From an uncultured Chloroflexia bacterium (GTDB lineage Bacteria; Chloroflexota; Anaerolineae; CG2-30-64-16), in the NCBI GenBank assembly GCA_963774265.1, contig CAVZDU010000002.1:288001-352000 (forward strand): a stretch of 64,000 nt of DNA. Direction: 5' to 3'. Below are positions 1-13,888 of the stretch, piece after piece. The position numbers and the translations under genes are program-made. The notes beneath the pieces were generated by a model, which had not been told where the DNA came from, did not search any database, and saw nothing but the letters and a program-made list of their open reading frames with translations. Each line of letters begins with the position of its first letter. Within the stretch, counting starts at the first letter, position 1.

Positions 1-2
1 TG

Positions 3-299
3 CGAACCGGTCGTCGCGAGTGCCGGCATGAAGCGGCGCACATCGCTGGCTGGAGCATCTTGGCAACCAGCCTCTCTGTGTCCTCCTTTATGCTCTTGAT
101 TTCGATCCTGGCGCTGGTTTTGTGGTTTCGTCGAGCAGACAGGACCGAGGCTTGGACGTTCATCGGCATCGCCGGTCTGGCATTCCTAATCCTTTATGTG
201 ACTATGACCGCGTACTTCCTAATTCAAGGCTATTCCAAAGCTCGACGAATACGTGGCGAAATCGATGCCCTGGCTCATCTTGTGCGTAGCCCTCACTAA
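3..299 (+). CDS. Hypothetical membrane protein, 5'-partial (frame open from the window edge)
   Basis: Frame is open from nt 3 to the TAA ending at 299. It contains two hydrophobic segments (FMLLISILALVLWF; WTFIGIAGLAFLILYVTMTAYFLI). Confidence 0.55.
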   Translation, partial: RTGRRECRHEAAHIAGWSILATSLSVSSFMLLISILALVLWFRRADRTEAWTFIGIAGLAFLILYVTMTAYFLIQGYSKARRIRGEIDALAHLVRSPH

Positions 300-490
300 T
301 GGGTGACCGCACATTGCTCTCCTCCTGCCGATTTGCCTTCCGTCTGTATCGCGCGGCCAACTCCCCGGGGGAAGACGGTGGAATGGTACGGTGTGTTCGT
401 GGTCGAGAACCTTCTGATTCTCGCATGGGCGCGGGACCGCGCGCCAGGCGCCTCCCTAGAACGTGGCGCGCGGTCTGCCGAGGCGTGCCC

Positions 491-694
491 CTACACTGGG
501 TCCGGGCCACAGAACTGCAGGCCACATTTCTCGCACAGGTAGATCTGCGTGCGCGGGAAGACCAGCATGAGGCTGCCGGCTGCGGCCTTGCGGTGGCAGC
601 GCCAGCAAATTTCGCCTTCGGTGGCGTTGATCCATACGGGCGGTTTGCGGTCGGAGCGGATCTTGCGGGCGCTTTTGCGGCGCATGATGGCCAT
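491..694 (-). CDS. Small putative zinc-binding protein (CxxC...CxxC)
   Basis: 67 aa with CWRC and CEKC motifs. AGGAGG RBS lies just upstream of the ATG. Confidence 0.6.
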   Translation of the reverse strand: MAIMRRKSARKIRSDRKPPVWINATEGEICWRCHRKAAAGSLMLVFPRTQIYLCEKCGLQFCGPDPV

Positions 695-806
695 CGGTGC
701 TTCCTCCTGTGTGTGCCGGCGTCGCGCAGAGCTGTGTGCGCGATCCCGCCAGGCAAGCGCGGGGGACGGCGCTGACTCACCGCCCCCCTTCCCGTCCTTA
801 TGAGGA

Positions 807-1196
807 CTACATAGCCTCCCCCGGCTCCTCGCCGGCCTTTTCGGCCGCGGCCGCCGGCGCCTTCGGCCCCGTGCCGTTCCCGCCGGGCGCGGCCTTCAGC
901 CGGATCACGGTCAGCTCCCACCCCGCGACCCGCATGGGCGTGGGTTCGAGCAGGACCTTCTTGCCGAAGCAGCTGGTCACATCGTCCCCAAAGAGCGCCT
1001 GCAGCGCGTCCTGGTTCGTCTGCGAGAGGACCAGGCCCTTTTTGGTCTCCCGGAAGTACAGCACCGCTGCGGGCCGGTTGCGCTTCTCGGCCTGGGAATA
1101 GACTTCTTCGACCACGACCTGGTCGATGGTGAGCGTGCGGGCCTTGCCCTGCAGGTGGTCGGCCTTGAGCCAGCGATCGAAATCACTCCACTTCAT
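807..1196 (-). CDS. Phage-type conserved hypothetical protein (possible ssDNA-binding OB-like fold)
   Basis: Pattern WLKADHL-G...TLTI..V..EEV...P.AVLYF.E.KKGLVL..TN...L..LFGDD...FGKKVLL.P......IRL resembles a recurrent phage replication/recombination-module family (recognised from memory). The acidic flexible C-tail (EKAGEEPGEAM) is SSB-like. RBS AGGAG. Confidence 0.65.
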   Translation of the reverse strand: MKWSDFDRWLKADHLQGKARTLTIDQVVVEEVYSQAEKRNRPAAVLYFRETKKGLVLSQTNQDALQALFGDDVTSCFGKKVLLEPTPMRVAGWELTVIRLKAAPGGNGTGPKAPAAAAEKAGEEPGEAM

Positions 1197-1208
1197 GGGG
1201 TTCTTCTC

Positions 1209-1484
1209 CTAGTGATGGGTATTGGTGTGCCGGCGCTGGTCCGCGTGCCGGATCAGCTCGCCCGGCCAGAAGCCGTAACGTAGATGGTGGACCATGCGGT
1301 GGTCCTCGCTGCGCACGTCGAGCTCAATCATGATCCCGCCGGTGTTCGTGACCAGGGCGACCACGCGGGAGATCTGGCCATGCGGCACCCCACGCCGGGT
1401 GTAGTCCGGCAGCGTGATGGGGATGATGATCTCCTGGGTCTGGTCATCGGCGAGCTCGGACAGGTTGATGACATAGCGTCCCAT
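1209..1484 (-). CDS. Hypothetical protein
   Basis: 91 aa with a strong RBS (GGAGGAGG), tightly packed with its neighbours and with GC3-rich codons. Confidence 0.65.
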   Translation of the reverse strand: MGRYVINLSELADDQTQEIIIPITLPDYTRRGVPHGQISRVVALVTNTGGIMIELDVRSEDHRMVHHLRYGFWPGELIRHADQRRHTNTHH

Positions 1485-1485
1485 A

Positions 1486-1755
1486 TTAGCCCCTCCTCCA
1501 GATGGGCAGTCCGCCCCGGCGGTCGCGGATGTGGATCATGTCCACGTGCTGGCTGCCGGTGGTCAGGATGTGGTTGCGCAGCCGCCAGGCCGGCGGCCCT
1601 CGCCGGCCTGGCTGGGCACGAGGCCGCGCCCGCCGCATGCTCCGCACAGCACCTGACAAAAGCGTCCTGAGCAATGCCAAACAAACAGGGAGGAGTGGCA
1701 AGCGCCGGCTGCCCATACGACGCAAGGCAAGGAAGCCAGAAGGCCTCCCGGTCAC
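1486..1755 (-). CDS. Hypothetical Arg-rich protein (start uncertain)
   Basis: The stop sits 1 nt before the next start. The 3' part (NHILTTGSQHVDMIHIRDRRGGLPIWRRG) looks coding; the 5' part overlaps hairpins and A-poor sequence. Confidence 0.35.
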   Translation of the reverse strand: MTGRPSGFLALRRMGSRRLPLLPVCLALLRTLLSGAVRSMRRARPRAQPGRRGPPAWRLRNHILTTGSQHVDMIHIRDRRGGLPIWRRG

Positions 1756-1898
1756 CCTCCAGCCGCAAGGGGCAAAGCGGCCCCCATAGAAAGGCAGCGC
1801 CAGCCATCCGCCTCCCCAGATTGCTCCCGCCAGGGGAGGCCGGTCGTCATTCCCTACTCTCTCATTGATCGCGCGACCGCGATGGGGCGGGAGCGCGC

Positions 1899-1959
1899 AC
1901 GGGCAACGGGGCGCGCGGTTGGGGGGCGGGGTGTGGGTCCCGGGCCTGCGAGCGAGGCG
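1899..1959. repeat. Degenerate ~60-bp G-rich direct repeat, copy 1
   Basis: ACGGGCAACGGGGCGCG is identical at 1899-1915 and 3794-3810. Similarity continues to GCGAGGCG with one gap. Confidence 0.7.
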
Positions 1960-2290
1960 AGGGAGGTCAGATGGTGTGGCGCGATTGGGCGTTAGTGGCG
2001 CGAGGTGCGGAGATGGGTGGGAGGGGATCGCGGGGGAACCGCAGTGCGGTGCCGCCCGTCGGACTCTTGTCCATCGTCAGTTCGGCCGTGGACCACTTTG
2101 GGTGAAAATTCGCTGGACCAGCTTGGGTGAAGACACCTGGTCCAGATAATATCTCAGGAAGTGGTGTAGAAGCAGCCCGATGCGGTATTGGCAACCGTCG
2201 ACGCATTCGTATGGATCCTGGCCTATTGTTTGGTCGTTGCAGTTGCACCTTCCGCGGATGACATGAGAAAAAGACCGTTAACGCGTCGTC

Positions 2291-2319
2291 TTTACACCAG
2301 AGCGTCGAAATGATAGACT
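2291..2319 (+). promoter_or_regulatory. Putative sigma70 promoter of the formamidase gene
   Basis: TTTACA-N17-TAGACT with an extended -10 TG. Confidence 0.5.
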
Positions 2320-2396
2320 CTTATCAGAATTGTCAAGCGTCAAATGAGACCAAACTTCTTACTCACATCTCATGACTCAATCGCTAAGGGGGTACT

Positions 2397-3686
2397 ATGG
2401 CGACGAATACCATTCTTGTGAACACGTACACCAACGGGATCCTTGGACCCAGCGCCCAAATGCTGGGGCCGGTAAGGGACGGCGGAACCATCATTGCCAA
2501 TACTGCACCGGGATGCTGGGGACCGATGATCACGCCCGAGATCCGCGGCGGTCATGAAGTCACTCAGCCGGTGGCAGTGGAGGGGGCAATGCCGGGAGAC
2601 AGCATTGCGATCCGTATTCTTTCCATCGATGTGACCAGCAAAGTCACCTCCTCCGGCGTTGATATCATTCAGGGAAGCTTTTGTGTGGGAGATCCTTTCG
2701 TGGCAGCGAAATGCCAGAATTGCGGAAAACTCTGGCCGGAGACCCACATCGAGGGGATCGGAAAAGATGCCATCAAATGCGACGACTGCGGCGCTACTGT
2801 CGCACCCTTTGTCTTTGCCAACGGATACACTATCGCCTTCGATGAGAAGAAGACAGTGGCTTTGACCCTTGCCAAAGAGCAGGTGGATCAGATCGCTCCA
2901 GAGGCGGAAAAATACGCTTCCCTTCCCGAGCATTCCATTCAGAACCCGGTCACCACGCTGGCTCCCAGCGATCTGCCCGGCATCGCGACCAGGATGAGGC
3001 CCTTTGTCGGACAGTTGGGGACATGCCCGCCAGTGGATACCCCGGACAGCCACAACGCAGGTGATTTCGGTCAATTTCTCATTGGAGCGCCTCACGATTA
3101 TGCCATCCAGCCGGAAGGCATTGAACAATTGACGGACGGACATATGGATGTCAACCGCGTACGGGCAGGCGCGGTTCTGATCGTCCCGGTCCGCATGGCA
3201 GGAGCCGGTGTCTATGTAGGTGATATGCATGCGATGCAGGGAGATGGCGAAATTGCAGGCCACACCGCTGACGTCTCTGGCGTGATCGTGATGCAGGTGA
3301 ACGTGATCAAGGGACTTTCGATCCCTGGACCGATCCTCCTGCCCAATGAAGCGGACCTGCCCCATCTTGCCAAACCACTGAATGAATCGGAGAAACTGGC
3401 TGCGACGCGTCTCAGCGAACAGTGGAACACCTCCATCGAGGAGACGGCTCCCATTTCCTTTATCGGAACTGGTGCGAATCTCAACGCTGCAGTAGACGGG
3501 GCAATCAGCCGGGCTTCCCAGGTCCTGGGCATCCGTCAGGAAGAAATAAAAAACCGCCTGACCATTGCAGGCGGACTGGAAATCGGGCGCTACCCTGGAA
3601 CAGTGACCGCCACCTTCGCTGCTCCCGTGAAGGCCTTGAAAAACGCGGGGCTCTACGACCTGGTCAAAGAACAATATCAGCTATAA
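2397..3686 (+). CDS. Acetamidase/formamidase family protein
   Basis: 429 aa. Motifs GGHEVTQPVAVEGAMPGD, DGHMDVNRVRAGAVL and GDMHAMQGDGEIAGH are typical of the FmdA/AmdA family; there is a CxxC...CxxC insertion. Confidence 0.9.
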   Translation: MATNTILVNTYTNGILGPSAQMLGPVRDGGTIIANTAPGCWGPMITPEIRGGHEVTQPVAVEGAMPGDSIAIRILSIDVTSKVTSSGVDIIQGSFCVGDPFVAAKCQNCGKLWPETHIEGIGKDAIKCDDCGATVAPFVFANGYTIAFDEKKTVALTLAKEQVDQIAPEAEKYASLPEHSIQNPVTTLAPSDLPGIATRMRPFVGQLGTCPPVDTPDSHNAGDFGQFLIGAPHDYAIQPEGIEQLTDGHMDVNRVRAGAVLIVPVRMAGAGVYVGDMHAMQGDGEIAGHTADVSGVIVMQVNVIKGLSIPGPILLPNEADLPHLAKPLNESEKLAATRLSEQWNTSIEETAPISFIGTGANLNAAVDGAISRASQVLGIRQEEIKNRLTIAGGLEIGRYPGTVTATFAAPVKALKNAGLYDLVKEQYQL

Positions 3687-3717
3687 AAAGATGCCCGGCA
3701 GGAAGCCGGGCATCTTT
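3687..3717 (+). terminator. Intrinsic terminator (possibly bidirectional)
   Basis: AAAGATGCCCGGC-AGGAA-GCCGGGCATCTTT is a perfect 13-bp inverted repeat right after the stop codon. Confidence 0.8.
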
Positions 3718-3793
3718 GCTTTGTGCGCCAGGCATGTCGTGTCTGAGCGCCAGGATGACCACCTGGGCAAGCGTGCGCGGCCGGGACAGTCAA

Positions 3794-3853
3794 ACGGGCA
3801 ACGGGGCGCGAATGGGAGGGTGGGGCGCGGGCCATGGGCCCGCGGGCGAGGCG
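3794..3853. repeat. Degenerate ~60-bp G-rich direct repeat, copy 2
   Basis: Aligns with 1899-1959. Confidence 0.7.
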
Positions 3854-4081
3854 TGGGGGGTCTTCCCCCATGGCTGTGTCATCGTTGGCGAGCAGATGGG
3901 CGAGTTGGCCGTGATGATCGTGACCGGCGTGATGGCCGGATCGATCTTCGGCGTCATCATGGCCCGGGTCGGCTGCCGGTGATGAACACTGGTCTGGGTC
4001 TGATCAGGCCCGCGGACATGCATCAGCAAGGACAAAAACTGGCGTACGTAGCAAAACGGTTGTCTTGGCAGACAACGCCGC

Positions 4082-4110
4082 TTGCACCATGTGTCACATT
4101 GACATACTAT
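4082..4110 (+). promoter_or_regulatory. Putative sigma70 promoter of the FGE-domain gene
   Basis: TTGCAC-N17-TACTAT, followed by an AGGAGG RBS before ATG 4157. Confidence 0.45.
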
Positions 4111-4156
4111 GGAGACACGCCAATCGCTATAGTCTCTCCCACCAGGAGGCACTGCC

Positions 4157-5045
4157 ATGAAGCGTTTTGTCTTTTGGCTGCTCAGCATCGCTGCACTCAT
4201 CACCATGCTCTTGCCCGTCAGCACTCTGGCTGCAGCTCAGGGGCTGGTCAGGCCGGAGTCGGGCGACGCCAATGGCTACTCAGTCTACCTGCCGCTGGTT
4301 GTCAAGCTGCCTCCTCCCCCCGGCGATATGGTTCTCGTCCCCGCCGGCACGTTCCAGATGGGCTGCGACCCGGCGCACAACGGCGGCTACACGTGCTCCT
4401 CCGATGAGCTGCCGCTGCACACGGTGTACCTGGACGCGTACCGCATCGACCGGACCGAGGTGACCAACGCGCAGTACGCGCAGTGCGTGGCGGCCGGGGG
4501 GTGCACGCGCGCCATCCAACAGCTCGTCCTACACCCGTTCGTCCTATTACGGCAACCCGACCTACGCCAACTACCCGGTGATCTACGTGAGCTGGTATCA
4601 GGCGGCCGCCTACTGCGGGTGGGCGGGCAAGCGGCTGCCGACGGAGGCGGAGTGGGAGAAGGCGGCGCGCGGGGCGAGCGACACGCGGGCCTACCCGTGG
4701 GGCGATGCGGCGCCGACCTGCGCGCTGGCGAACAAGTATGATTGCGTAGGCGACACCAACGCGGTGGGCAGCTACCCGGCCGGGGCCAGCCCGTACGGCG
4801 CGCTGGACATGGCCGGCAATGTGTGGGAATGGGTCAACGACTGGTACGACGAGGGCTACTACAGCATCTCGCCGTACAGCAACCCGCCGGGGCCGACGAC
4901 GGGGACTATGAAGGTGCTGCGCGGGGGCGGTTGGGACTACTCCCGCTACGACGGCCATTTCCGCGCGCCGCGCCGCAACGCCTACTACCCGACGGTCCAG
5001 TTCTACCAGCTCGGTTTTCGGTGTGTTGCAGCCCCAGGAATGTGA
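4157..5045 (+). CDS. Secreted formylglycine-generating-enzyme (SUMF1/FGE-sulfatase, C-lectin-fold) domain protein; one frameshift near 4510; putative DGR target
   Basis: Signal peptide, VYLPLVVK motif, then [42 protein letters not shown] and RGGGW...GFRCV. ORFs 4157-4741 and 4578-5045 join across a +1 indel. Confidence 0.9.
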
Positions 5046-5049
5046 GCTG

Positions 5050-5277
5050 CTGGGCTTTGGGTTCTGGCCTTCTGAGGGGGGAGCCTGAGGGGGCAAGACC
5101 CCCCCGTCCCCGCCAGCTCGGTAGCGCAGGGCCGGACTGAAGCCGGCCCCCGAGGGGGTCTGGGGCGAGGAGCCCCGGTCGGAGGGGGCGTTAGGGCCGC
5201 CTTCGGCGGCTCTAACGTAAGGGGGAACCCCAGTGGGGTGCCGCGTCTTTAGATCGGCCTGGCCGATAGGCCAGGTT
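5050..5277. other. Heptamer-like repeats followed by a dense cluster of GC-rich hairpins
   Basis: CTGGGCT-TTGGGTT-CTGGCCT at 5050-5070. Stems at 5089-5103, 5129-5149, 5162-5176, 5189-5217 (13 bp), 5227-5239 and 5256-5277. Confidence 0.75.
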
Positions 5278-5303
5278 CCACTGTTGGATCGTTTCGCCGC
5301 CGC

Positions 5304-5338
5304 AAAAAGGGGGACCGACCCACCCGGGCCGGCCCCCC
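5304..5338 (-). terminator. Intrinsic terminator of the adenine-free gene
   Basis: Minus strand GGGGGCCGGCCC-GGGT-GGGTCGGTCCCCC-TTTTT. The G-U pairs form only on the minus-strand RNA. Confidence 0.8.
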
Positions 5339-5350
5339 GCACGCGGACCC

Positions 5351-5623
5351 TCACGCCCGCACCCAGCGCAGCGCGCCCGCCAGCGGACCGGACGACACGG
5401 CCACCCACGACCCACCCGGCGCCAGCGGAGCCAACGCAGAGGGCGGAAAGCCCACGCAGAACACCAACACGGACACCCCCAAGCCCGCAGCCAGCCGGGC
5501 AGCACCGAGCGACCCGACCGACGAGGGCGAGGAGAGGAACCACACCCCGACCGACGAGCGAGGCGCACCAGCCACGGGGCGCACACAGGCAGCGGATCGG
5601 CGAGCCAGGCGCGGCGTGAGCAT
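5351..5623 (-). pseudogene. Adenine-free, 5'-truncated gene encoding the C-terminal half of a SLOG/DprA-like protein
   Basis: RLARRSAACVR...VWFLSSPSSVGSLGAARLAAGLGVSVLVF matches the SLOG-type (R)N/S..V...hhh....GS..h...A...G.PVhVh layout (recognised from memory). The coding strand has no A between 5596 and 5352. Confidence 0.6.
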
Positions 5624-5886
5624 CCGCCCAGCTATCGTGAATCATCACGGCATCGGCGCTGACGCCGGCCGTGAGAGTGGCACGATCGCTATCGAGCACG
5701 AACGGAGGCTCGCTCGACTGCCAGGCGGCCAGCAGGTCGGTTGTGGCACCCCACCGGGGCTGTTCGGGTCTGCCAGAAGCCCAACGGATTTAGCGGAACA
5801 GGGTTCAGTCATGGGGCACCTCCTCAAAGTGGGTATGGGTCGGTCACCGGTTTGGCCCTCACCAGTGTAAGTGCCCCAACACTTGG

Positions 5887-6528
5887 CTACCCATCGAACT
5901 GTACGGAGCTTGATCCCTGCTCTACAGATCTGCTTTTCCGGGCTAGAATCACCTGGTGACGTTCGTCCCCGCCTTCGTCGATTTCGTCCAGTAGTATCTC
6001 GAAGCCGGCGCCACGGATGATCGCACTATTCTCATCAGGGCCGTAATGGCTCCACCACATCGTTACACCGTAGAAATCAGATTCGGCACCTTCCCATTTT
6101 GAGGCGCCCATAGTCACCAGGATGTATCCACCCGGCCTCAAGAACGTGTTGATGGTGCGGAAAAGCGATTCGTGCGATTCTCTTGGTAGGTGGAAGATCG
6201 CGTAGAACGAAACAACCGCATCGACCTGGTACTCGCTGGCGCACAGTCCGCGCATGTCTGCCACCGCGAAGGTGGCCCCAGGCACATTGGCGCGCGCTAG
6301 TTCGATTTGTTTTTCGGAGATGTCCAGGCCGCTAACTCGAAACCCTCGATCTACAAGATAGCGATCGATCGGAATGCCGGCTCCGCAACCAAGATCGAGA
6401 ACGGCCGCCTGAGGTTTAAGAAGCGGCGTGAGCTTATCCAAATATCGATTGCTCTTGAACTGATTGCGTCCCCGAAGGTAGGCTTCAGCAGCTTTGTTAT
6501 AGCTGTCTTTCACGATGGAATCAGCCAT
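5887..6528 (-). CDS. Class I SAM-dependent methyltransferase
   Basis: VLDLGCGAG motif I, GLDISEKQIELAR, FYAIFHLPR and LRPGG. Confidence 0.9.
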   Translation of the reverse strand: MADSIVKDSYNKAAEAYLRGRNQFKSNRYLDKLTPLLKPQAAVLDLGCGAGIPIDRYLVDRGFRVSGLDISEKQIELARANVPGATFAVADMRGLCASEYQVDAVVSFYAIFHLPRESHESLFRTINTFLRPGGYILVTMGASKWEGAESDFYGVTMWWSHYGPDENSAIIRGAGFEILLDEIDEGGDERHQVILARKSRSVEQGSSSVQFDG

Positions 6529-6639
6529 GCCGGATTTGTCTCCCCTTGTGGTAGGTCGGCCACACGTGGCGGTCGGCCGCCGTCACGAGGGCGTTGGACA
6601 CGTAAGCGTGAGCGAGGTCTGCGCCTTGCCAAGGGCTAG

Positions 6640-8234
6640 CAGCCTGTCGGAGAGTTGCCACTGTGGGACAGGCTGAATCGTGATACACTGGTCGCATGAC
6701 CAGAAAATTCAAGACGGTTGACTACGAAGCGGCTCTCGATCAGACGGTCAGTCTGCGAGAAGCGTTGCCGGCCAATCATCTGGCTCGGTTCGTGGTAGAG
6801 TTGGTGGCCCAGCTGGATTTAACCAACATCTACCAACGCTATGGAGCACACGGCGGCGAAGCCTATGCGCCGGAGATCCTGCTGGCGCTGTTGTTTTACG
6901 GCTACGCCACTGGCGTGTTCAGTTCCCGCAAGATCGAAAGGGCGACCTACGAGACGTTGCCTTTCCGGTTTGTAGCGGGCGGGCTGCATCCCGATCACGA
7001 CACGCTGGCGAACTTTCGCAAGACGTTTCGGGTCGAGATCAAAGAGCTGTTCGTGCAAGTGCTGTTTCTGGCCCAGGCTACTGGCTACTTCAAGCTTGGC
7101 AACATCAGCATGGATGGCTCCAAGGTGCATGCCAATGCTTCCAAGAGCAAGGCGATCAGCTTCAAACGGCTACTGGAACTGGAAGCCCACTTGCGGGCCG
7201 AAGTGGACCAGTTGTTCATCCTGGCTGAACAGGCGGACCGCCACGAACTGTCGGACGCCATGAATGTCGCCGACGAGATCACTTTACGACAGGAACGTCT
7301 TGAGCGGTTGGCCGAGGCCAAGAAGGTGCTGCAAGCCCGGGCGCAGGAGCGGCAGGCGGCCGAGCAGGCCGAGTACGAAGCCAAGCAACGTGAGCGCGCG
7401 GCCAAAGCCAAGCGCTCAGGACGCAAGCCGCCGGGACGGCCGCCAACGCCGCCGTCTGGCGAGCCGCAGGACAAGGACCCGTACAACTTCACCGACCCTG
7501 AGTCGCGCATCATGAAGTGTTCCAGCAGCGCCGGGTTTGAGCAAGCCTACAACGCCCAGGTGGCAGTAGACCAGGATAGCTTGTTGATCGTCGCCTATAG
7601 CTTGTCCAACCGCCCGAACGACAAAGCCGAGGCTGAACCAACTCTGGAAGCTCTGCCACCGGCCCTGGGCACGCCCGCAGCGGCGGCGCTGGACAACGGC
7701 TTCTGGAGCGAGAAGAATCTCGCTGCTCTGGAAAAGCGGCGCATCGAGCCTTACATCGCCACGGGCCGCGAGCCGCATCACAAGAGTTGGCAAGAGCGCT
7801 TCACCGCCGAGCCCGAGCCGCCAGCGGAGGATGCCAGCCCGCAGGTCAAGATGGCCTACAGGCTGCGTACTGAGATCGGCCAGGCGATCTACCGCTTACG
7901 CAAATGCACCGTCGAGCCGGTGATTGGCATCATCAAAGCGGTGCTCGGCTTCCGCCAGTTCTCGTTACGCGGCCTCAACGCCGCCGATAGCGAATGGGCC
8001 CTGGTCTGTTTGGCCTTTAACCTGAAGCGCATGCATACGTTGAGCTTGGCCTAACCGCGCCCAGTGCATGCTGGAGGCGGCTCGATGCAGCGCCGCCCGC
8101 CTGAGTTTGGGATGTTAAGGATCATTTTCGATACTCGCCTGCCGGAGACCGTCACTACCAGCCGCTAACGTTAGCCCTTTGGGCTTACCGTACCGGCTGT
8201 TAGCCAGCCAATAACGCTCCTCTCCGACAGGCTG
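6640..8234 (+). mobile_element. IS1182-family insertion sequence
   Basis: Perfect 15-bp terminal inverted repeats CAGCCTGTCGGAGAG (6640-6654) / CTCTCCGACAGGCTG (8220-8234), flanked by duplicated CTAG (6636-6639, 8235-8238). Confidence 0.9.
6696..8054 (+). CDS. IS1182-family DDE transposase
   Basis: N-terminal LP.NHLARFV...YGYATGVFSSRKIE..PDHDT (DUF772-like), DGSKVHANAS, TDPESRIM, YN.QVAVD, LDNG and RK.TVEPVIG.IK. Confidence 0.92.
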   Translation: MTRKFKTVDYEAALDQTVSLREALPANHLARFVVELVAQLDLTNIYQRYGAHGGEAYAPEILLALLFYGYATGVFSSRKIERATYETLPFRFVAGGLHPDHDTLANFRKTFRVEIKELFVQVLFLAQATGYFKLGNISMDGSKVHANASKSKAISFKRLLELEAHLRAEVDQLFILAEQADRHELSDAMNVADEITLRQERLERLAEAKKVLQARAQERQAAEQAEYEAKQRERAAKAKRSGRKPPGRPPTPPSGEPQDKDPYNFTDPESRIMKCSSSAGFEQAYNAQVAVDQDSLLIVAYSLSNRPNDKAEAEPTLEALPPALGTPAAAALDNGFWSEKNLAALEKRRIEPYIATGREPHHKSWQERFTAEPEPPAEDASPQVKMAYRLRTEIGQAIYRLRKCTVEPVIGIIKAVLGFRQFSLRGLNAADSEWALVCLAFNLKRMHTLSLA

Positions 8235-8239
8235 CTAGG

Positions 8240-8491
8240 CTAAGCCCCGCCAGCAGATGGGTCGCAGCAACAGCAGCCCTTGCGTCCAAACAGGAAGTAC
8301 GCGATCGGCCCCGCAAAGTTCACAAACGAGATCAGCGTCCAAAGCCGCCGGTCGCCCCTGATTTCGTCCGCAGGCCGGCGCCACATATCCCACAGCGCCG
8401 CGACCAACAGCGTGATCTGCAAGACCGCCCCCAGCTGGATTGCTTTCTGTTGCCCAGTTGTGAAGTCGCTCCACTTTTTCTGCTGCATCAT
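8240..8491 (-). CDS. Small membrane protein with PLD-nuclease N-terminal (PLDc_N)-like domain and Cys-rich tail
   Basis: KKWSD...ALWDM.RRP..EIRG.R.LW......GPIAYFLFGRK, then CCCC. AGGAGG RBS before ATG 8491. Confidence 0.75.
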   Translation of the reverse strand: MMQQKKWSDFTTGQQKAIQLGAVLQITLLVAALWDMWRRPADEIRGDRRLWTLISFVNFAGPIAYFLFGRKGCCCCDPSAGGA

Positions 8492-8620
8492 GGTTGCCCT
8501 CCTGACGGTTGGGTCCGGCCCCATATGGCCGGCCGGGTAAAGGTGTTCGATGTTCTGAATTCGTTTGCCACCGGCATCCATCATACACCTTCACGCCTTC
8601 GCCGTCTATCCCCCTTAGCG

Positions 8621-10160
8621 CTTGCGGTACCCCACTTTGTAATGCCAGCTAGTTGAATAGATCGACAGCTTCGGGCATCTTGTGTTATTCCACAAACCCA
8701 AGTATCCGGAGCTGTCGATGACCTTAACATATGCTGATGTGTTGACATTTGTCCAGCATCTCACACCCACGTGGGTCAAGCCGCAGCAGAGCATGCTGGC
8801 GCAGATCGTGAGTGCGTTGACGGAACGTCCGAGCTTCTGTGCGACCGAGGTGGCGCGTGCGCTGCCCGACGGACCGCGTGCGCAGGGCCGCCAGTCGTTG
8901 CATGGTCGGCTCAAACGGCTGAACCGCTTTCTGAGCAATCCACGCCTGGATGAGCCCGAGATCTTCTATCGGTGGTACCGCTTAGCCGTCCACTTTAGCA
9001 CCGCGGTGCCGACGGACCCGCAACTATTGCCCGTCTTACTCGACACGACGTATTTCGAGCCCTTTGCGGCCCTGATTGCCAGCGTGCCCTGTGGCGGCCG
9101 CGCCTTGCCCATCGTGTTCACCACCTATCATCGCCGCCAACTCCGGGCCTGTTTCCCCCCGGCCGCCCGCTGGCCCACGCCCGATACGACCAGCATCCGG
9201 CCCGCACGACGGCAGCACCAACCGCTGCAAGCGGCGAGCGCCGAGGTGCACCACTGGACCAGTCAAAACCATATCGAGGAACACCTGCTCCATTACCTGG
9301 GGTCCTTGGCCACCCCCAGCCAGCAAATCGTGATCGTGGCGGATCGCGGGTTTGCGCGCGCCAGTCTTTTCCGCTGGTTTCTGACCCACCAGCGCCAGTT
9401 TGTGATTCGGTTCGACGGCGAAACCTGGCTGCACCTGCCCGACGGGACGGCCGGCGCGGCCAAGGACGTGTTGGCCCTGCAACCCGGCCAACGGCGCTGG
9501 CTGCCGCAGGCTCAGTACGGCAAAGACGACCCAGTGCCCGTGGCGGTCCTGGCGCTCTGGGAAGTCGGTCACAAGGAACCCTGGTATCTGGCTACCCATC
9601 TACCGTCTGAACCCGCCACCGAAACCTGTTATCGCTGGCGTATGCGCATTGAAGCCGGTAACCGCGACGACAAATCCGGCGTCATGCTCCGCGAAAGCGG
9701 CGATGAACACCGCCTTAAGTCACCCTTACATGTGCACAGCTTGCTCCTGGCCAACCTGTGCCTGCACTGGCTCGCCGCACTCACGGGCCTCCAGGCCCAT
9801 CATGACTTGGCGCAACCGCACGCGATCGCCCCCGCCCTCGAAGCGGCACCCCCGGATACACCGGATGCCGACTTGCTGGCCCATGGCCCCGCCCAGCCGC
9901 CCCCAGTCATCCCCCATCGCGGCCCACAACCCCACCTCCCCCACTGGATGCGCCGCTTTGCCGCACGCGGCTGGCTCAGCTATGTGCGCCTCGGCCTCGA
10001 AATCCTGCGCGCCCCCGCCTGGTCGACACTCGTCCGCCGCGCCGTCCACTGGCTCGGCGTCTATCTCTGGACCACAACCCCGCTCTGGCGCCCATGGCAG
10101 CGTCGCTACCGCCTCAAACACTGGTGGCCCCTACCAAGCTAGAAAGTGGGGTACCGCAAG
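8621..10160 (+). mobile_element. IS4-like insertion sequence
   Basis: Perfect 18-bp TIR CTTGCGGTACCCCACTTT (8621-8638) / AAAGTGGGGTACCGCAAG (10143-10160). 9-bp target duplication CCCTTAGCG (8612-8620, 10161-10169). Confidence 0.9.
8682..10142 (+). CDS. IS4-family DDE transposase
   Basis: LLDTT (D), IVADRGF (D), EPWYLAT and the Y.WRMRIE..NRD.K signature (YREK-like). Confidence 0.85.
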   Translation: MLFHKPKYPELSMTLTYADVLTFVQHLTPTWVKPQQSMLAQIVSALTERPSFCATEVARALPDGPRAQGRQSLHGRLKRLNRFLSNPRLDEPEIFYRWYRLAVHFSTAVPTDPQLLPVLLDTTYFEPFAALIASVPCGGRALPIVFTTYHRRQLRACFPPAARWPTPDTTSIRPARRQHQPLQAASAEVHHWTSQNHIEEHLLHYLGSLATPSQQIVIVADRGFARASLFRWFLTHQRQFVIRFDGETWLHLPDGTAGAAKDVLALQPGQRRWLPQAQYGKDDPVPVAVLALWEVGHKEPWYLATHLPSEPATETCYRWRMRIEAGNRDDKSGVMLRESGDEHRLKSPLHVHSLLLANLCLHWLAALTGLQAHHDLAQPHAIAPALEAAPPDTPDADLLAHGPAQPPPVIPHRGPQPHLPHWMRRFAARGWLSYVRLGLEILRAPAWSTLVRRAVHWLGVYLWTTTPLWRPWQRRYRLKHWWPLPS

Positions 10161-10362
10161 CCCTTAGCGGCATCGCCGGCGATGCTTACCCCCCGCCTCC
10201 TGCAGCCGATCCAGCGGCGGCCCGTTACCGCGCGCCGCCACTTGCCGCCGTGCCCGTCCTCCCCGATAATCCCATCATCGTCCATTGTCGCCGCTCATCG
10301 CCACCGGAGTCCCACCGCCCATGCAGCAGACCGAACTCGCCGCCCGCGACTATCGCGTCCTC

Positions 10363-10776
10363 TCAGCCTTCGCCGCCGGCCGCAGCCTGAACCCGATCGC
10401 GGCGGACGCCGGTCCGGGCTGGCATTCCCCGGCGCCGGGCGTTCGAGTCGCCGGACGGGCCGCGCTGCCAGACCGGCCGATCAAACGTGCCGAGAACCAC
10501 ATAAACGTTGCCGGCGACTTGAGGCGCGTGGTTTGCGAAGAATATGGTTAGCTGATCTTCCAACTCGTCTCGATGGACGATCAGCAGATCGCATCCGGTG
10601 CAATAACGGCAGGTCCTGTTCAGGACCAACGGATTCATGGGGTCAACGTGAACTATAAGCGGCACCTTGCGCACGCGTCGTACGGCGCGACAGCGCGGGC
10701 ATACTGTGAACCGGACATCCTGATATGGATTGACAAAGAAACTGTAGCGGGCTGGCTGCTTGCCGAGCTGTGTCAT
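10363..10776 (-). CDS. Conserved hypothetical Cys-motif protein (C-terminus possibly disrupted)
   Basis: RYSFFVNPY.DVRFT.CP.C...CRYC..CDLLI pattern. GGAG RBS. Confidence 0.6.
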   Translation of the reverse strand: MTQLGKQPARYSFFVNPYQDVRFTVCPRCRAVRRVRKVPLIVHVDPMNPLVLNRTCRYCTGCDLLIVHRDELEDQLTIFFANHAPQVAGNVYVVLGTFDRPVWQRGPSGDSNARRRGMPARTGVRRDRVQAAAGGEG

Positions 10777-10830
10777 GGCTGTACTCCGTCGTGATGAACG
10801 ATTACCAAGGCGCACCCTCCCGGACGGCCA

Positions 10831-11295
10831 CTAAAACGTTGACGCCACCGCCAAATGGAACCCGCCTGCCGTCTCCGTAATTTCGAAGTTGATGATCCGC
10901 CTGGTGTTGTCTGCAAACAGGGCCTGTTTGCGCGCGACCAGCGCGTTCACGATCTCCTTGGCGTCCGCTCTCACCGGTCCCGCGTCTGCCGGAACGCTTG
11001 CGTTCACGATCCCATCAATCATCTGCTCTCGCTCGCCAGGTGGTAGCAAGGCCGCGTTCCAGGCGAGCGCCGCCAGTGTGAACAGCGTGCGGTGGTCGGC
11101 TGCTGTCTCAGCCAATTCAAGATACGGGTCCACAAACTGCTCCAGGACATCGGACATCTTGACCTGACCTTTGGGTTCGATGACGAACTGCGTCGCTTGC
11201 AACGGCCCCTGAGCCACCTTGTGCTTGAGACGCTCCATCCCCAACTGGCGCTGTTTCTGTTTGCTCTTGTGCCGCTTGGATTTCGAATTCGCCAT
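10831..11295 (-). CDS. Conserved hypothetical protein
   Basis: Basic N-terminus, KMSDVL..F..PY, A.LAWNAALLP and RK..LF.DN.R.I. GAGGAGG RBS. Confidence 0.7.
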   Translation of the reverse strand: MANSKSKRHKSKQKQRQLGMERLKHKVAQGPLQATQFVIEPKGQVKMSDVLEQFVDPYLELAETAADHRTLFTLAALAWNAALLPPGEREQMIDGIVNASVPADAGPVRADAKEIVNALVARKQALFADNTRRIINFEITETAGGFHLAVASTF

Positions 11296-11380
11296 TCGCT
11301 CTCCTCCTCGCAGATTGTCGCTCATCAAAACAATTGAGGCCATTTTACCACGCATCGGCAGACTAATGATCTGCTCGGGG

Positions 11381-13888
11381 TCAGCGTGACCGATTGGGGA
11401 CATCAGTCACCTCGGCCGTTTGCATGGGCCAGACAATGCTAAAGCCAGCGCATAGGGTGGTCATGGGCAAGTTGGCGACGTCATAGCCGGCCAGCTGCAG
11501 CGGCGACTTGCCGCGGATGCGGGGCTGGGCGTCTTGCGAGAAGGGGGTGAAGCGGTAGATCTTCTCGAAGACGGCCAGGTAGCGTTGCGCATCGGTGAGC
11601 GACTCGAAGCCGCAGAAGTTTTGGTAGTGTTGGTCGAAGCGGCGAATCACCAGTTCCACGGTATTGTTGGTGGCCGGGATCAGGCTGGAGTCAATGCTGT
11701 TGGCGAGCTTGGGCCAATGGCGCTCCAAGAAATCGAAGATCGCGGCCGCCTCGGGGCGGGCTTGGACATAGTCTGGGCGTAAGGCGAGCACGGCCGTGTA
11801 GCGTTGGGTAGCCAGGGTCAGGGTTGTGGCGGCGAAGATGGTGTAGATTTGCTGCTTGAGTTGCTCAGCTTCGGGGTGCTGGTCCGCATAGTCCGGGCCA
11901 TAGACCGCCTTGATATGTTTTTGGGCATCTTGCAGCGCATGGAAAAGACACAGGTGATGCACAGCCTGTGGGAAGACCTGGGCAATGACCGGGCCGTAGT
12001 CCTGGCGCAGGTCGGTGACGATCACTTGCGGGTGGTAACCCTTGGCGCGCAACGCCAGCAGGAAGGCCTGGGCGCTGTCGTCATTGTTGTAGGCGTACAT
12101 GGCGATGTGCAAGAGATCATAGGTCCACACGTCCACGGCCAGGTAGACATACATCCAGCGTCGCATCTCGCCCGCCGGCTTGTCGTTCTTGGGTACCAAG
12201 ACGTACTTCTCGTCCACGCCTACCACCCCGCTCGACTTCACCACGCCAAACACGGCCGCCACCGGCAACAAGTCATCACCCCAGGCGCTCACCCAGCGCC
12301 AGGCGGTCAGACTGGCCACGCCGAGCGCGGTACCTGTGCGCCGGTAGGTCGAGTAGCCCCAGGCGTACATCTGGATCGCCAGCAGGTGGACTTCCGTGCG
12401 GTAACGGGAGTAAGGCACCAGCCCGCGCGGCAGGTTGGTAAAGCTGCCCTTGTCACACTGCGGGTTGCGGCAGTAGTACCGATAGACGGCTAGCTCACGC
12501 AACTGGTGGGTCTCGTCGTAGTACTGCTTCAGGCGCGGCGTCGCGCTCTTGCGCCCAACCTGGTCGGAGCCACAAGTAGGGACAGCGCACCTGGCCGTCC
12601 GTGAGCAGCTCCCAGGAGCCGAACAGCGCCTGCTCCACCCGCAGGAGCCAGGGCTAGCGCCTTGCCCGGTGGTGCGGCAGGCACTCCGGCTTCAGCCGTC
12701 AACGCCATCACGTCAGCCAGCGGCAGGCGCACTTCCGCCGGCGCACCGCCTCCGCTTTCCCAACGGGCCAGCAGATCTCGGATCTGCGTCAGCAACTGCC
12801 CCACCAACCACTCGTCACGCAGCCGCAGCGCGCTAGCGCCTCAGCTCATAGCGTTCGTCCAGGGTCTGCCGCAGCCGCTGCCAGCCGCTTTGGACGGCAG
12901 CTTGCGCCACCTGCGCCGCAGTCACGGGCACACCCTGCTGGCGCAGATAGTGGTACACCCGTTCTTGACTCCAGGTCGGGAAGCTGGCGAACACCTCCAC
13001 GATCCGACCAACCAGTTCGACAGTCAGCACTTCCGCACTACACAGGCTCAGCAGATTGGCCCAGTCCCGGCCAACCAGTAGCGCTGCCAGCGACTGATGT
13101 CAGGGTGCGGGACGCCGAACCACGCCGCCAGTTGCATCTCCCGCACGAATGGCGTGCGCCCATCCCGCGTGCGCCGGCCGCCCCGTTGCGGCCCCGGCAC
13201 CATCCAGCAAACCCAAGAACAGGATCAGCAAGCGCATCCGGAACGGATGGTCAGCCAGCGACGGCCAGCGTAAAGTGCCCGCACAGCGTGGCCTGGTAGC
13301 TGCCATCCGCCTGGCGCTCGACCTGTACCCAGGGCTCTTCCCGCTCACAGACCACGCAGCCCACCCCCAGACCCCACGCCGTCCTGGCGCCCAGCAGGCT
13401 GGACCACTGCCAGCCCAACAGCAGATACCCGACCAGTAACAGCCGCTGGGCCTGCCACAGCCCCAGTCTGCACACCCCGCCAGAGCGCCCGGGTGCGCCA
13501 ACTCGGCCAGCCAACGCCCAAACCCTGCCATAGCCACAAACACCCACGGCAGCAGCCGCAGCCCAGCGCGGCCCCCAGCGCCCACTCCACTCCCATAAGC
13601 CCCATAACAACAGGCTGCGCAGCAGCACAGGCGGCCAACTCGCCAGCAGATAGCGCCCCAGCGCAGCCAAGTCGCACCCCACCCCGGCGCCGCGGCGACC
13701 CACCGCCGCTCGCCCGGTGGCACGGCCCGCACCTGCCCCGCCGCCACGGCCGGCGGCACCACCCACCACCCCGCCACCTCGCCCGGCGTTTGCCCCAGCA
13801 GCACCAGCCCGAGCAGGCTCAGCACCGCCAAGCCATGCAACACGACCCACGCCGGTTGATAAACCCAGTGCCTTGTGGTACCTTGCAT
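11381..13888 (-). CDS. Large (~835 aa, frameshift-corrected) DDE transposase with Trp-rich hydrophobic N-terminal region, HTH-like segments, Zn finger and CxxH insertion
   Basis: C-terminal VGVDEKY...YVYLAVD, IVTDL, LCLFH and [15 protein letters not shown]...YYC.NP.C zinc ribbon. The upstream ORF pieces (13100-13924, 13251-13850, 12833-13030, 12529-12807) join through several indels. Confidence 0.7.

Follow-up and report, generated by a model that had tools for sequence, protein, structure and literature searches.

A probable remnant of an adenine-depleted, DprA-like mobile-element gene in a Chloroflexota genome

How does a stretch of protein-coding DNA come to lack one of the four bases on its sense strand, and does anything keep that base out? 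The question is raised by a locus in a 64,000-nucleotide (nt) window, by which we mean the whole stretch of DNA analysed: positions 288,001 to 352,000 of contig CAVZDU010000002.1 from an uncultured Chloroflexia bacterium (assembly GCA_963774265.1). On the minus strand of this window, an open reading frame (ORF) of 90 codons at 5351–5623 and the terminator behind it are written almost wholly in G, C and T. Judging by sequence comparison, the region 5295–5623 is very probably the 3′ remnant of a mobile-element gene, comprising its last 89 codons, its stop codon and its intrinsic terminator. We first establish the run itself, then identify the gene to which it belongs, and finally weigh what could have removed adenine (A) from the family of that gene.

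The plus strand has no T from 5352 to 5596, a run of 245 nt composed of 105 C, 78 G and 62 A, and a second T-free stretch of 56 nt occupies 5295–5350. The sole plus-strand T within 5295–5596, at 5351, pairs with the A in the TGA that closes the ORF on the minus strand. The A-free zone (5295–5596, minus strand) opens, by base count, at codon 10 of the ORF and closes with the last base of the terminator T-tract, and the minus strand of the remnant has 2 A in 322 nt with the terminator counted in. These counts agree with the initial annotation of the locus, as do two further points that it made. Residues 4–90 of the ORF, the last 87, are drawn only from P, R, L, A, S, C, V, G, W and F, the ten amino acids that can be encoded without A, and the minus-strand A at 5597 falls on the third position of a CGA codon. 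After these two stretches, the longest run without T inside the window measures 54 nt. In a scan of the whole 5.5-Mb assembly, 12 runs of at least 80 nt lacked one base, and the 245-nt run was the longest stretch without any one base. At 18.4% T, the probability of such a run was computed as 2.0e-22 per site, in line with the value of about 1e-21 claimed initially, and about 4e-16 such runs are expected genome-wide.

The remaining long A- or T-free runs of the genome (81–187 nt) were either tandem or low-complexity coding sequence, as were the other T-free ones (92–187 nt, low-complexity coding), or poly-A and GGAAT junk ending contig C8. The longest of them, a 187-nt T-free run on contig C6 of this genome (G000; 281815–282001), is a repeated coding unit rich in Asp, Gly, His, Thr and Gln, an ordinary low-complexity cause. 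The tract on C8 (353814–354064), a long poly-A followed by GGAAT repeats and T runs at the contig end, looks like assembly or contaminant junk. Elsewhere in the window, the plus strand is mildly T-poor (6–9 T per 100 nt) at 1601–1800, at the start of the minus-strand ORF 1328–1807, and is A-free for 84 nt at 814–897; neither place matches the gene family described below.

Could the run be an artefact of assembly, as the initial annotation had allowed? It is not, because short contigs from three other sequencing runs, belonging to three studies (two of soil, one of freshwater), carry the stretch independently, with 91–98% identity over 5334–5561. The individual matches covered 5366–5516 with 14 differences, 5334–5505 with 5 and 5447–5561 with 2. 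A soil contig at 5584–5730 crosses the 5′ junction of the remnant with 5 differences, and a freshwater contig joins 5106–5183 to 5235–5307, a 51-nt deletion that removes 5184–5234. Twelve differences inside the run were listed and at least four more exist; none of the 12 creates a plus-strand T, that is, a sense-strand A, and all are exchanges among A, C and G. Among the sequencing runs listed, three DNA runs contained the stretch in small shares (0.05–0.07), and no RNA run contained it. A DNA search of 60 related genomes gave short matches of 24–76 nt in eight, none covering the whole run; in three of these relatives the matches touch window 5307–5387 (29–76 nt, 76–93% identity). The genome itself has no second copy of the stretch.

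Which strand and which frame, then, carry a gene? An ORF across the run proves nothing alone, because without A no stop codon can form on the minus strand, and without T neither stops nor starts can form on the plus strand, so that all six frames are open across it. GC content by codon phase (0.70/0.71/0.84) fits the minus-strand ORF and one plus-strand frame equally. The minus-strand ORF was chosen because an intrinsic terminator, the codon positions of variants and homology agree on it, and it is homology, not composition, that decides. The terminator (5304–5338, minus strand), identified by prediction and from the sequence, has a 13-bp stem (5338–5309) with 11 G-C pairs, a 4-nt loop and a TTTTT tract and, as claimed at the outset, contains no A. 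In the ORF frame, the 12 listed variants fall on codon positions 3, 1 and 2 in the numbers 6, 5 and 1, and half of them (6/12) are synonymous; in the true plus-strand frame 0, 5 of the 12 fall on second codon positions. A 15-nt inverted repeat (5343–5357/5613–5627, 87% complementary) flanks the A-free ORF, with the stop codon in one arm and the start codon in the other; it is possibly a chance occurrence.

One result points slightly the other way. A codon-usage score conditional on the three-letter alphabet was +4.1 for the plus-strand frame and −4.3 for the ORF frame, both above shuffles. Together with the low-complexity coding nature of the other T-free runs of the genome, this score would fit the view that the run is no gene of the kind proposed, being instead low-complexity plus-strand coding sequence (rich in Pro, Thr, Ala and Arg), structured RNA, chance or artefact. 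However, the plus-strand frame has no start codon before 5616, the plus-strand ORF 5233–5619 has no homologues by word-indexed protein search, and the true plus-strand frame 0 places 5 of 12 variants on position 2. An Rfam search of window 1–12000 at E ≤ 1 gave zero matches, and RNA folding of the run was no better than shuffles on either strand (z = −1.45 and −0.83); a structured non-coding RNA was accordingly rejected. No internal or tandem repeats of note were found in the run. Given also the three studies that hold the stretch and the chance value above, this view is hardly credible, and the homology of the ORF refutes it.

The homology was found as follows. The 90-residue product had no match in Pfam or PHROGs, and a word-indexed protein search with the ORF gave one match, P0001. 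A phmmer (HMMER) search of 1.84 billion representative proteins returned 45 matches at E ≤ 1e-3 (best 2.5e-14), mostly proteins of 160–260 residues, nearly all of which align through their C-terminal ~85 residues. These 45 matches, with alignment A2 (profile length 223), define what we call the family. Shared composition is not the cause of the matches, because none of 30 shuffled ORF queries yielded any match; family members of ordinary composition (P0031, P0036, P0044) also match the ORF. In many family proteins nearly every residue is F, L, S, C, W, P, R, V, A or G. Across 36 aligned members, the residues that require A make up from 0.5% to 27%, with some members at 0.5–2%. An intact gene of the family encodes ~190 residues, with N-terminal GSR and GAD motifs.

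The A2 profile matched the DprA structures 3UQZ (4.1e-5) and 3MAJ (4e-4). The full-length member P0009 was modelled with a predicted local distance difference test score (pLDDT) of 95.7 and a predicted template modelling score (pTM) of 0.91, and all seven Foldseek matches of this model at E ≤ 1e-3 were ShosA (8ZVA) or DprA chains, with other SLOG proteins next. As modelled for P0009, and not for the window fragment, the family has a DprA/ShosA-like SLOG fold, so that the SLOG/DprA-like label first given to the ORF is right for the family. Pfam family PF02481 was detected below threshold in 3 of 10 members scanned, the best at 22.1 bits against a gathering cut-off of 29.6. Fusions to DUF4326 (N- or C-terminal) or to a SWIM zinc finger occur in three members, P0029, P0044 and P0031, the last two of ordinary composition. 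Searching the 37 genomes of the bacterial family with P0001 gave the window itself and 3 weak matches only. Contig collections queried with P0001, A1 and A3 gave zero confirmed loci, viral contigs queried with A4 gave no locus, and phages searched by tblastn with P0009 gave no match.

How much of such a gene does the window hold? The alignment of the ORF begins at the conserved PLRxRLAxRS block and runs through to the C-terminus, corresponding to about residues 99/100–185 of P0009 in A2. A six-frame profile search of the genome found at this site only profile positions 99–192 of 223, and did not find the N-terminal half with its GSR and GAD motifs there. By alignment, profile and composition, family homology and A-free composition end together at a 5′ breakpoint at 5620–5626, where the ATG of the ORF lies; the junction is also present in the independent soil contig. 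Because only positions 99–192, the stop codon and the terminator are present, we read the window copy as a 5′-truncated relic. The initial annotation had taken it for a protein-coding gene in a three-letter alphabet; only the C-terminal half of the gene is here. Half a Rossmann fold is unlikely to be functional, and the ORF is probably a non-functional fragment; the copy is most likely inactive because its 5′ half and any promoter are lost. We read the relic as marking the border of a mobile element that has decayed. A deletion or rearrangement beside insertion sequence (IS) copies would be enough to leave a truncated 5′ end and an intact 3′ end, with no need for reverse transcription, and an inactive relic would just retain the composition that it had inherited.

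Does the lack of adenine belong to this relic or to the gene? In nine loci from metagenome-assembled genomes (MAGs) of Ignavibacteriota, Bacteroidota and Chlorobiaceae, whose overall A content is 26–33%, the sense strand of the zone contains 1–6% A over 580–800 nt, with edges sharp to within ~100 nt. Flanking A across relatives, including plasmids of Nitrosococcus and Methylobacter, is 23–33%. The depletion covers leader, synonymous sites and terminator, and some intact copies have zero sense-strand A for at least 200 nt. A full-length copy in the window's own phylum (genome G084) has 7.6% A against 17% in its flanks. The gene was found on four plasmids of cultured Nitrosococcus and Methylobacter, and the two complete plasmids examined (of Nitrosococcus oceani and of Methylobacter) carry a 1.0–1.3-kb two-gene unit with 4–5% A. 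The zone spans about 5265–6573 in L051 (N. oceani ATCC 19707 plasmid A) and about 4412–5419 in L050 (plasmid of Methylobacter sp. YRD-M1). The initial annotation had asked whether homologues would also be A-free: relatives in several phyla have 1–6% A, and some family members are of ordinary composition.

On both plasmids a small A-free partner gene stands ahead of the DprA-like gene (L050, 4503–4876; L051, 5306–5986), and the two partner products have a common conserved C-terminal block. In the Ignavibacteriota and Bacteroidota loci L040–L044 and L046 (~10001–11100), and in proteins P0007 and P0017, the A-free DprA-like domain runs on in frame, as a fusion, into an A-rich tail that has a transmembrane segment and ends in a ComEA-like helix-hairpin-helix. 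In these six loci the zone opens ~200 nt ahead of the ATG, and the tail of the same fusion ORF, 100 nt off, has 37% A. The neighbours of the gene place it in a mobile-element context: Sipho_Gp157 was found upstream in 3/3 MAG loci scanned, a methylase-SNF2 fusion occurs in L042, and the plasmids encode RepA, Gp157, DUF932 and HicAB. PLSDB classes both plasmids as non-mobilizable. Directly upstream of the A-depleted two-gene unit of the Methylobacter plasmid (L050, 4230–4510) lies a near-perfect fold-back of ~75 bp (z = −6.1; 0/200 shuffles as stable), a candidate single-stranded-DNA promoter.

At which level is adenine avoided? In the nine loci, GGA, GTA and CGA were absent and CTA and TTA were each used once, so third-position A is nearly absent and occurs almost solely after C (GCA 41, TCA 17, CCA 4). 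Because synonymous sites, leader and terminator are A-free too, the avoidance acts at the nucleotide level, which bears out the initial view that it goes beyond the protein. Pooled over 12 loci, depletion in the zone relative to the flank was 2.7-fold for CA, 5.8-fold for TA, 19-fold for GA and 22-fold for AA. Each common A-containing codon is one CpG-to-CpA transition away from an A-free codon, and C/T polymorphisms of the zone are enriched at CpG (16/31, versus 33/114 for invariant C). Conservation is also higher in the zone, with 104/667 variable columns, than in the tail that follows it in the ORF, with 220/630. In five related loci, exchanges between CG and TG versus exchanges between CG and CA numbered 20 versus 10 in the zone and 12 versus 12 in the tail, a hint that the zone goes on losing newly arisen sense-strand A.

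What could have produced this pattern? Selection might have acted on the protein, against Lys, Glu, Asp, Thr, Ile, Met, Tyr, Asn, Gln and His, for example as an escape from a protease or from lysine modification, with A loss as a by-product. Members in which 0.5–2% of residues require A would suit this idea, but GGA, GTA and CGA are missing from nine loci despite A-rich hosts, and the ten excluded amino acids form no biochemical class. Since synonymous and non-coding sites avoid A as well, a protein-level cause is largely ruled out in our judgement and we give it very little weight. Alternatively, another strand-specific mutational process, such as damage or editing of the sense strand or of a single-stranded DNA intermediate, might remove A without selection, the relic being inert. 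Such a process would explain why the zone spans non-coding parts and ends mid-ORF in some lineages, and why none of the 12 listed variants brings a new A into what is presumably an inactive relic or into its close relatives. It is nevertheless improbable: no known process turns A into G, T and C alike while sparing C and G, cytosine deamination in single-stranded DNA would deplete C, which is raised here, the tail of the same ORF is rich in A at a distance of 100 nt, and the proteins stay foldable, which requires selection throughout.

The initial annotation had itself offered a mechanism, in which RNA of the element is copied repeatedly by a reverse transcriptase (RT) of the type found in diversity-generating retroelements (DGRs), supplied in trans, which would purge dispensable adenines. 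Spelled out, the model would have the copies re-integrated and the 5′ truncation result from incomplete reverse transcription. Several features suit this model. The zone is strand-specific and sharp-edged and continues as far as the transcript's 3′ end, the copy is 5′-truncated with an intact 3′ end while P0002 is truncated at another point, and in polymorphic A columns the alternative base is G in 22, T in 13 and C in 6, not G alone. FGE-domain genes are often DGR targets, and the neighbouring gene is of that class. Yet PF00078 (RVT_1) has no match in the genome itself (84% complete), it was found in only 3/8 other carrier genomes (incomplete MAGs), in none of them shown on the carrier contig, and in 0/2 complete plasmids, and neither a scan of 30 neighbouring ORFs nor the annotations of the two plasmids showed an RT. 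A second copy of the stretch that could serve as template is missing from the genome, no repeat was found within 12 kb, and the 3′ end of the FGE gene has no template repeat, only an 81% paralogue on C1 that covers window 4786–4937. Zones of 580–1300 nt far exceed typical DGR repeats, and the members form a continuum of depletion with well-adapted folds. We consider purging by an adenine-mutagenic RT quite unlikely, while the observation that it was meant to explain stands.

We prefer long-term selection at the level of nucleic acid, acting on an operon of mobile elements that would be expressed early and serve establishment. The intact unit would consist of a leader, often a small partner gene and the DprA/ShosA-like gene of ~190 residues, all written with 1–6% sense-strand A. 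An mRNA without adenines, or its single-stranded template without thymines, would escape base-directed attack, and the protein would have adjusted to a repertoire of some ten amino acids while still folding. DarT attacks thymine in single-stranded DNA. Candidate attackers would include such T-directed attack on single-stranded DNA, A-dependent mRNA nucleases and ADP-ribosylation of adenine in single-stranded RNA of the type performed by CmdT, which is described as modifying adenine N6 in GA of single-stranded RNA (PMC11618068). Selection is favoured because the continuum of depletion, the well-adapted fold, the conservation of the zone and the fold-back of L050 fit it. That selection on the transcript or its single-stranded template keeps the family A-free is a tentative proposal, somewhat short of an even chance; the explanation taken whole, remnant identity together with selection, comes close to even without reaching it. 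A bolder version, a stealth code in which one early unit is kept adenine-free in several phyla so that the base-directed weapons of the recipient cannot touch it, and of which the window holds a decayed copy, is on balance doubtful.

Several points weigh against selection. Composition, homology, fold, zone extent and mobile-element context can be read from the data given above, whereas selection and any attacker are inferred. A supply of CpG-to-CpA changes onto an A-free baseline explains the residual A as well as avoidance of a target does, and it names no attacker; the stronger depletion of A after purines than after pyrimidines, once considered a signature of CmdT, was consequently dropped as support. 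The CpG asymmetry between zone and tail is not significant alone (p = 0.10), and the other contrast, of C/T with A/G changes, is confounded by base composition. In L040–L044 and L046 the zone stops mid-ORF before the A-rich tail, so that the transcript is not A-free throughout. The leader of L042 folds insignificantly (z = −1.8), and a scan for sigma-70-like promoters before the zones of L050 and L051 found none on the sense strand. Finally, a dead copy such as that in the window cannot be kept A-free by selection, and the absence of new A among its 12 listed variants then needs either recent divergence or contigs that derive from intact copies.

The surroundings of the remnant were also annotated. 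Downstream of its terminator, a hairpin-rich spacer (5046–5294, no strand assigned; folding z = −1.97) with short matches in relatives separates it from a convergent gene with an FGE-sulfatase domain (4157–5045, plus strand, by Pfam and ORFs). Dense hairpins extend over 5046–5345 and pieces of them recur, 5046–5095 at 85–90% in genomes G004, G005 and G054 and 5137–5210 twice in G020, which suggests a small repeated intergenic element. The FGE gene lies outside the element and is split into two overlapping frames (4157–4741 and 4578–5045), either by a frameshift or by an assembly indel. Its C-terminus resembles a DGR target, yet the genome shows neither RT nor template repeat. Upstream of the breakpoint, 5624–5886 (minus strand) has normal composition and, in the ORF list, a 55-codon ORF with ATG at 5812, a GGAGG-type ribosome-binding site and a TGATGA end. 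Another minus-strand frame of this stretch has a better codon score than that ORF, and the upstream minus frame 5625–5789, compared with longer proteins, gave no homologues. It is followed by a class-I S-adenosylmethionine (SAM) methyltransferase gene (5887–6528, minus strand; Pfam) with a low GC content at third codon positions (0.60). Farther on lie two IS-type transposase genes recognized by Pfam, one of DUF772/DDE_Tnp_1 type (6696–8054) and one DDE transposase ORF (8599–10182) with 43-nt flanking inverted repeats that are 84% complementary.

The family matters beyond this locus. Its members are natural proteins that, according to the model of P0009 (pLDDT 95.7), would fold with about ten amino acids, which bears on the design of reduced-alphabet proteins and on the early genetic code. 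If selection does keep A out, the family would point to a widespread attack on adenine, or on template thymine, directed at mobile DNA that enters the cell. Because scanning for it is simple, the trait can serve as a marker of establishment or counter-defence operons in mobile elements. The window adds that relics retain the signature, that the family reaches the phylum of this genome, that the RT explanation fails its own test, and that the CpA pattern of the remaining adenines can be put down to ordinary mutation.

Among known systems, the nearest in fold is DprA/Smf (PF02481; 3UQZ, 3MAJ, 4LJK, 5MLL), with which the family shares its Rossmann-like SLOG fold. Compared with DprA, family members are about half the size, lack the sterile alpha motif (SAM) domain and winged-helix extensions, fall below the Pfam cut-off, are borne by mobile elements and are A-depleted. 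The best structural match to P0009 is ShosA (8ZVA; E 2.5e-5, query-normalized template modelling score (TMq) 0.60, 19% identity), reported as the DprA-like antitoxin of the ShosTA defence system (PMC11961720, PMC12961424). Like the family, ShosA is a small DprA-like protein, and its role lies in conflict between host and mobile element; unlike the family, it is not reported to be A-depleted. No ShosT-like phosphoribosyltransferase appeared in the Pfam scan of 30 neighbouring ORFs, in the two plasmid annotations or in the window, although no search was aimed at ShosT.

Early-acting genes of conjugative plasmids offer a second comparison. Their leading regions carry Frpo/ssi single-stranded-DNA promoters and establishment genes (PMC11541004), of which the Methylobacter fold-back and the DUF932 and Gp157 neighbours may be counterparts. 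The fold-back is strong in L050 and weak in L042. Both of our plasmids are non-mobilizable by PLSDB class, and the window copy lacks its 5′ region. A 2026 account of plasmid leading-region composition treats GC-richness and the variance of GC skew, and the words "adenine" and "DprA" are absent from it (PMC13478746). In the published literature we found no prokaryotic adenine-free or adenine-depleted case, and the habit of this family seems undescribed. The sole coding precedent found is the alternative mRNA export (ALREX) region, described as an adenine-poor signal-sequence coding region of vertebrate mRNAs (PMC2100149, PMC3635865). There the constraint acts at the RNA level, as we propose here, but it concerns eukaryotic nuclear export and a partial depletion over tens of nucleotides, unconnected with bacteria or mobile elements.

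Diversity-generating retroelements resemble the zone in that adenine-specific change is confined to a bounded segment; they differ from it in that here no RT and no pair of template and variable repeats was found, the segment is longer, and A is completely lost and not diversified. The last parallel is avoidance of a target motif. Mobile elements avoid restriction sites, and ACA-free mRNAs resist MazF; in both, as would hold for the family under selection, the target of an attacker is purged while coding is kept. Here, in contrast to motif avoidance, a whole nucleotide is gone from one strand over 0.3–1.3 kb, which forces a vocabulary of ten amino acids on the protein. If selection is indeed what keeps adenine out, no known natural case of target avoidance would be more extreme than this family, with a whole letter removed from the message.

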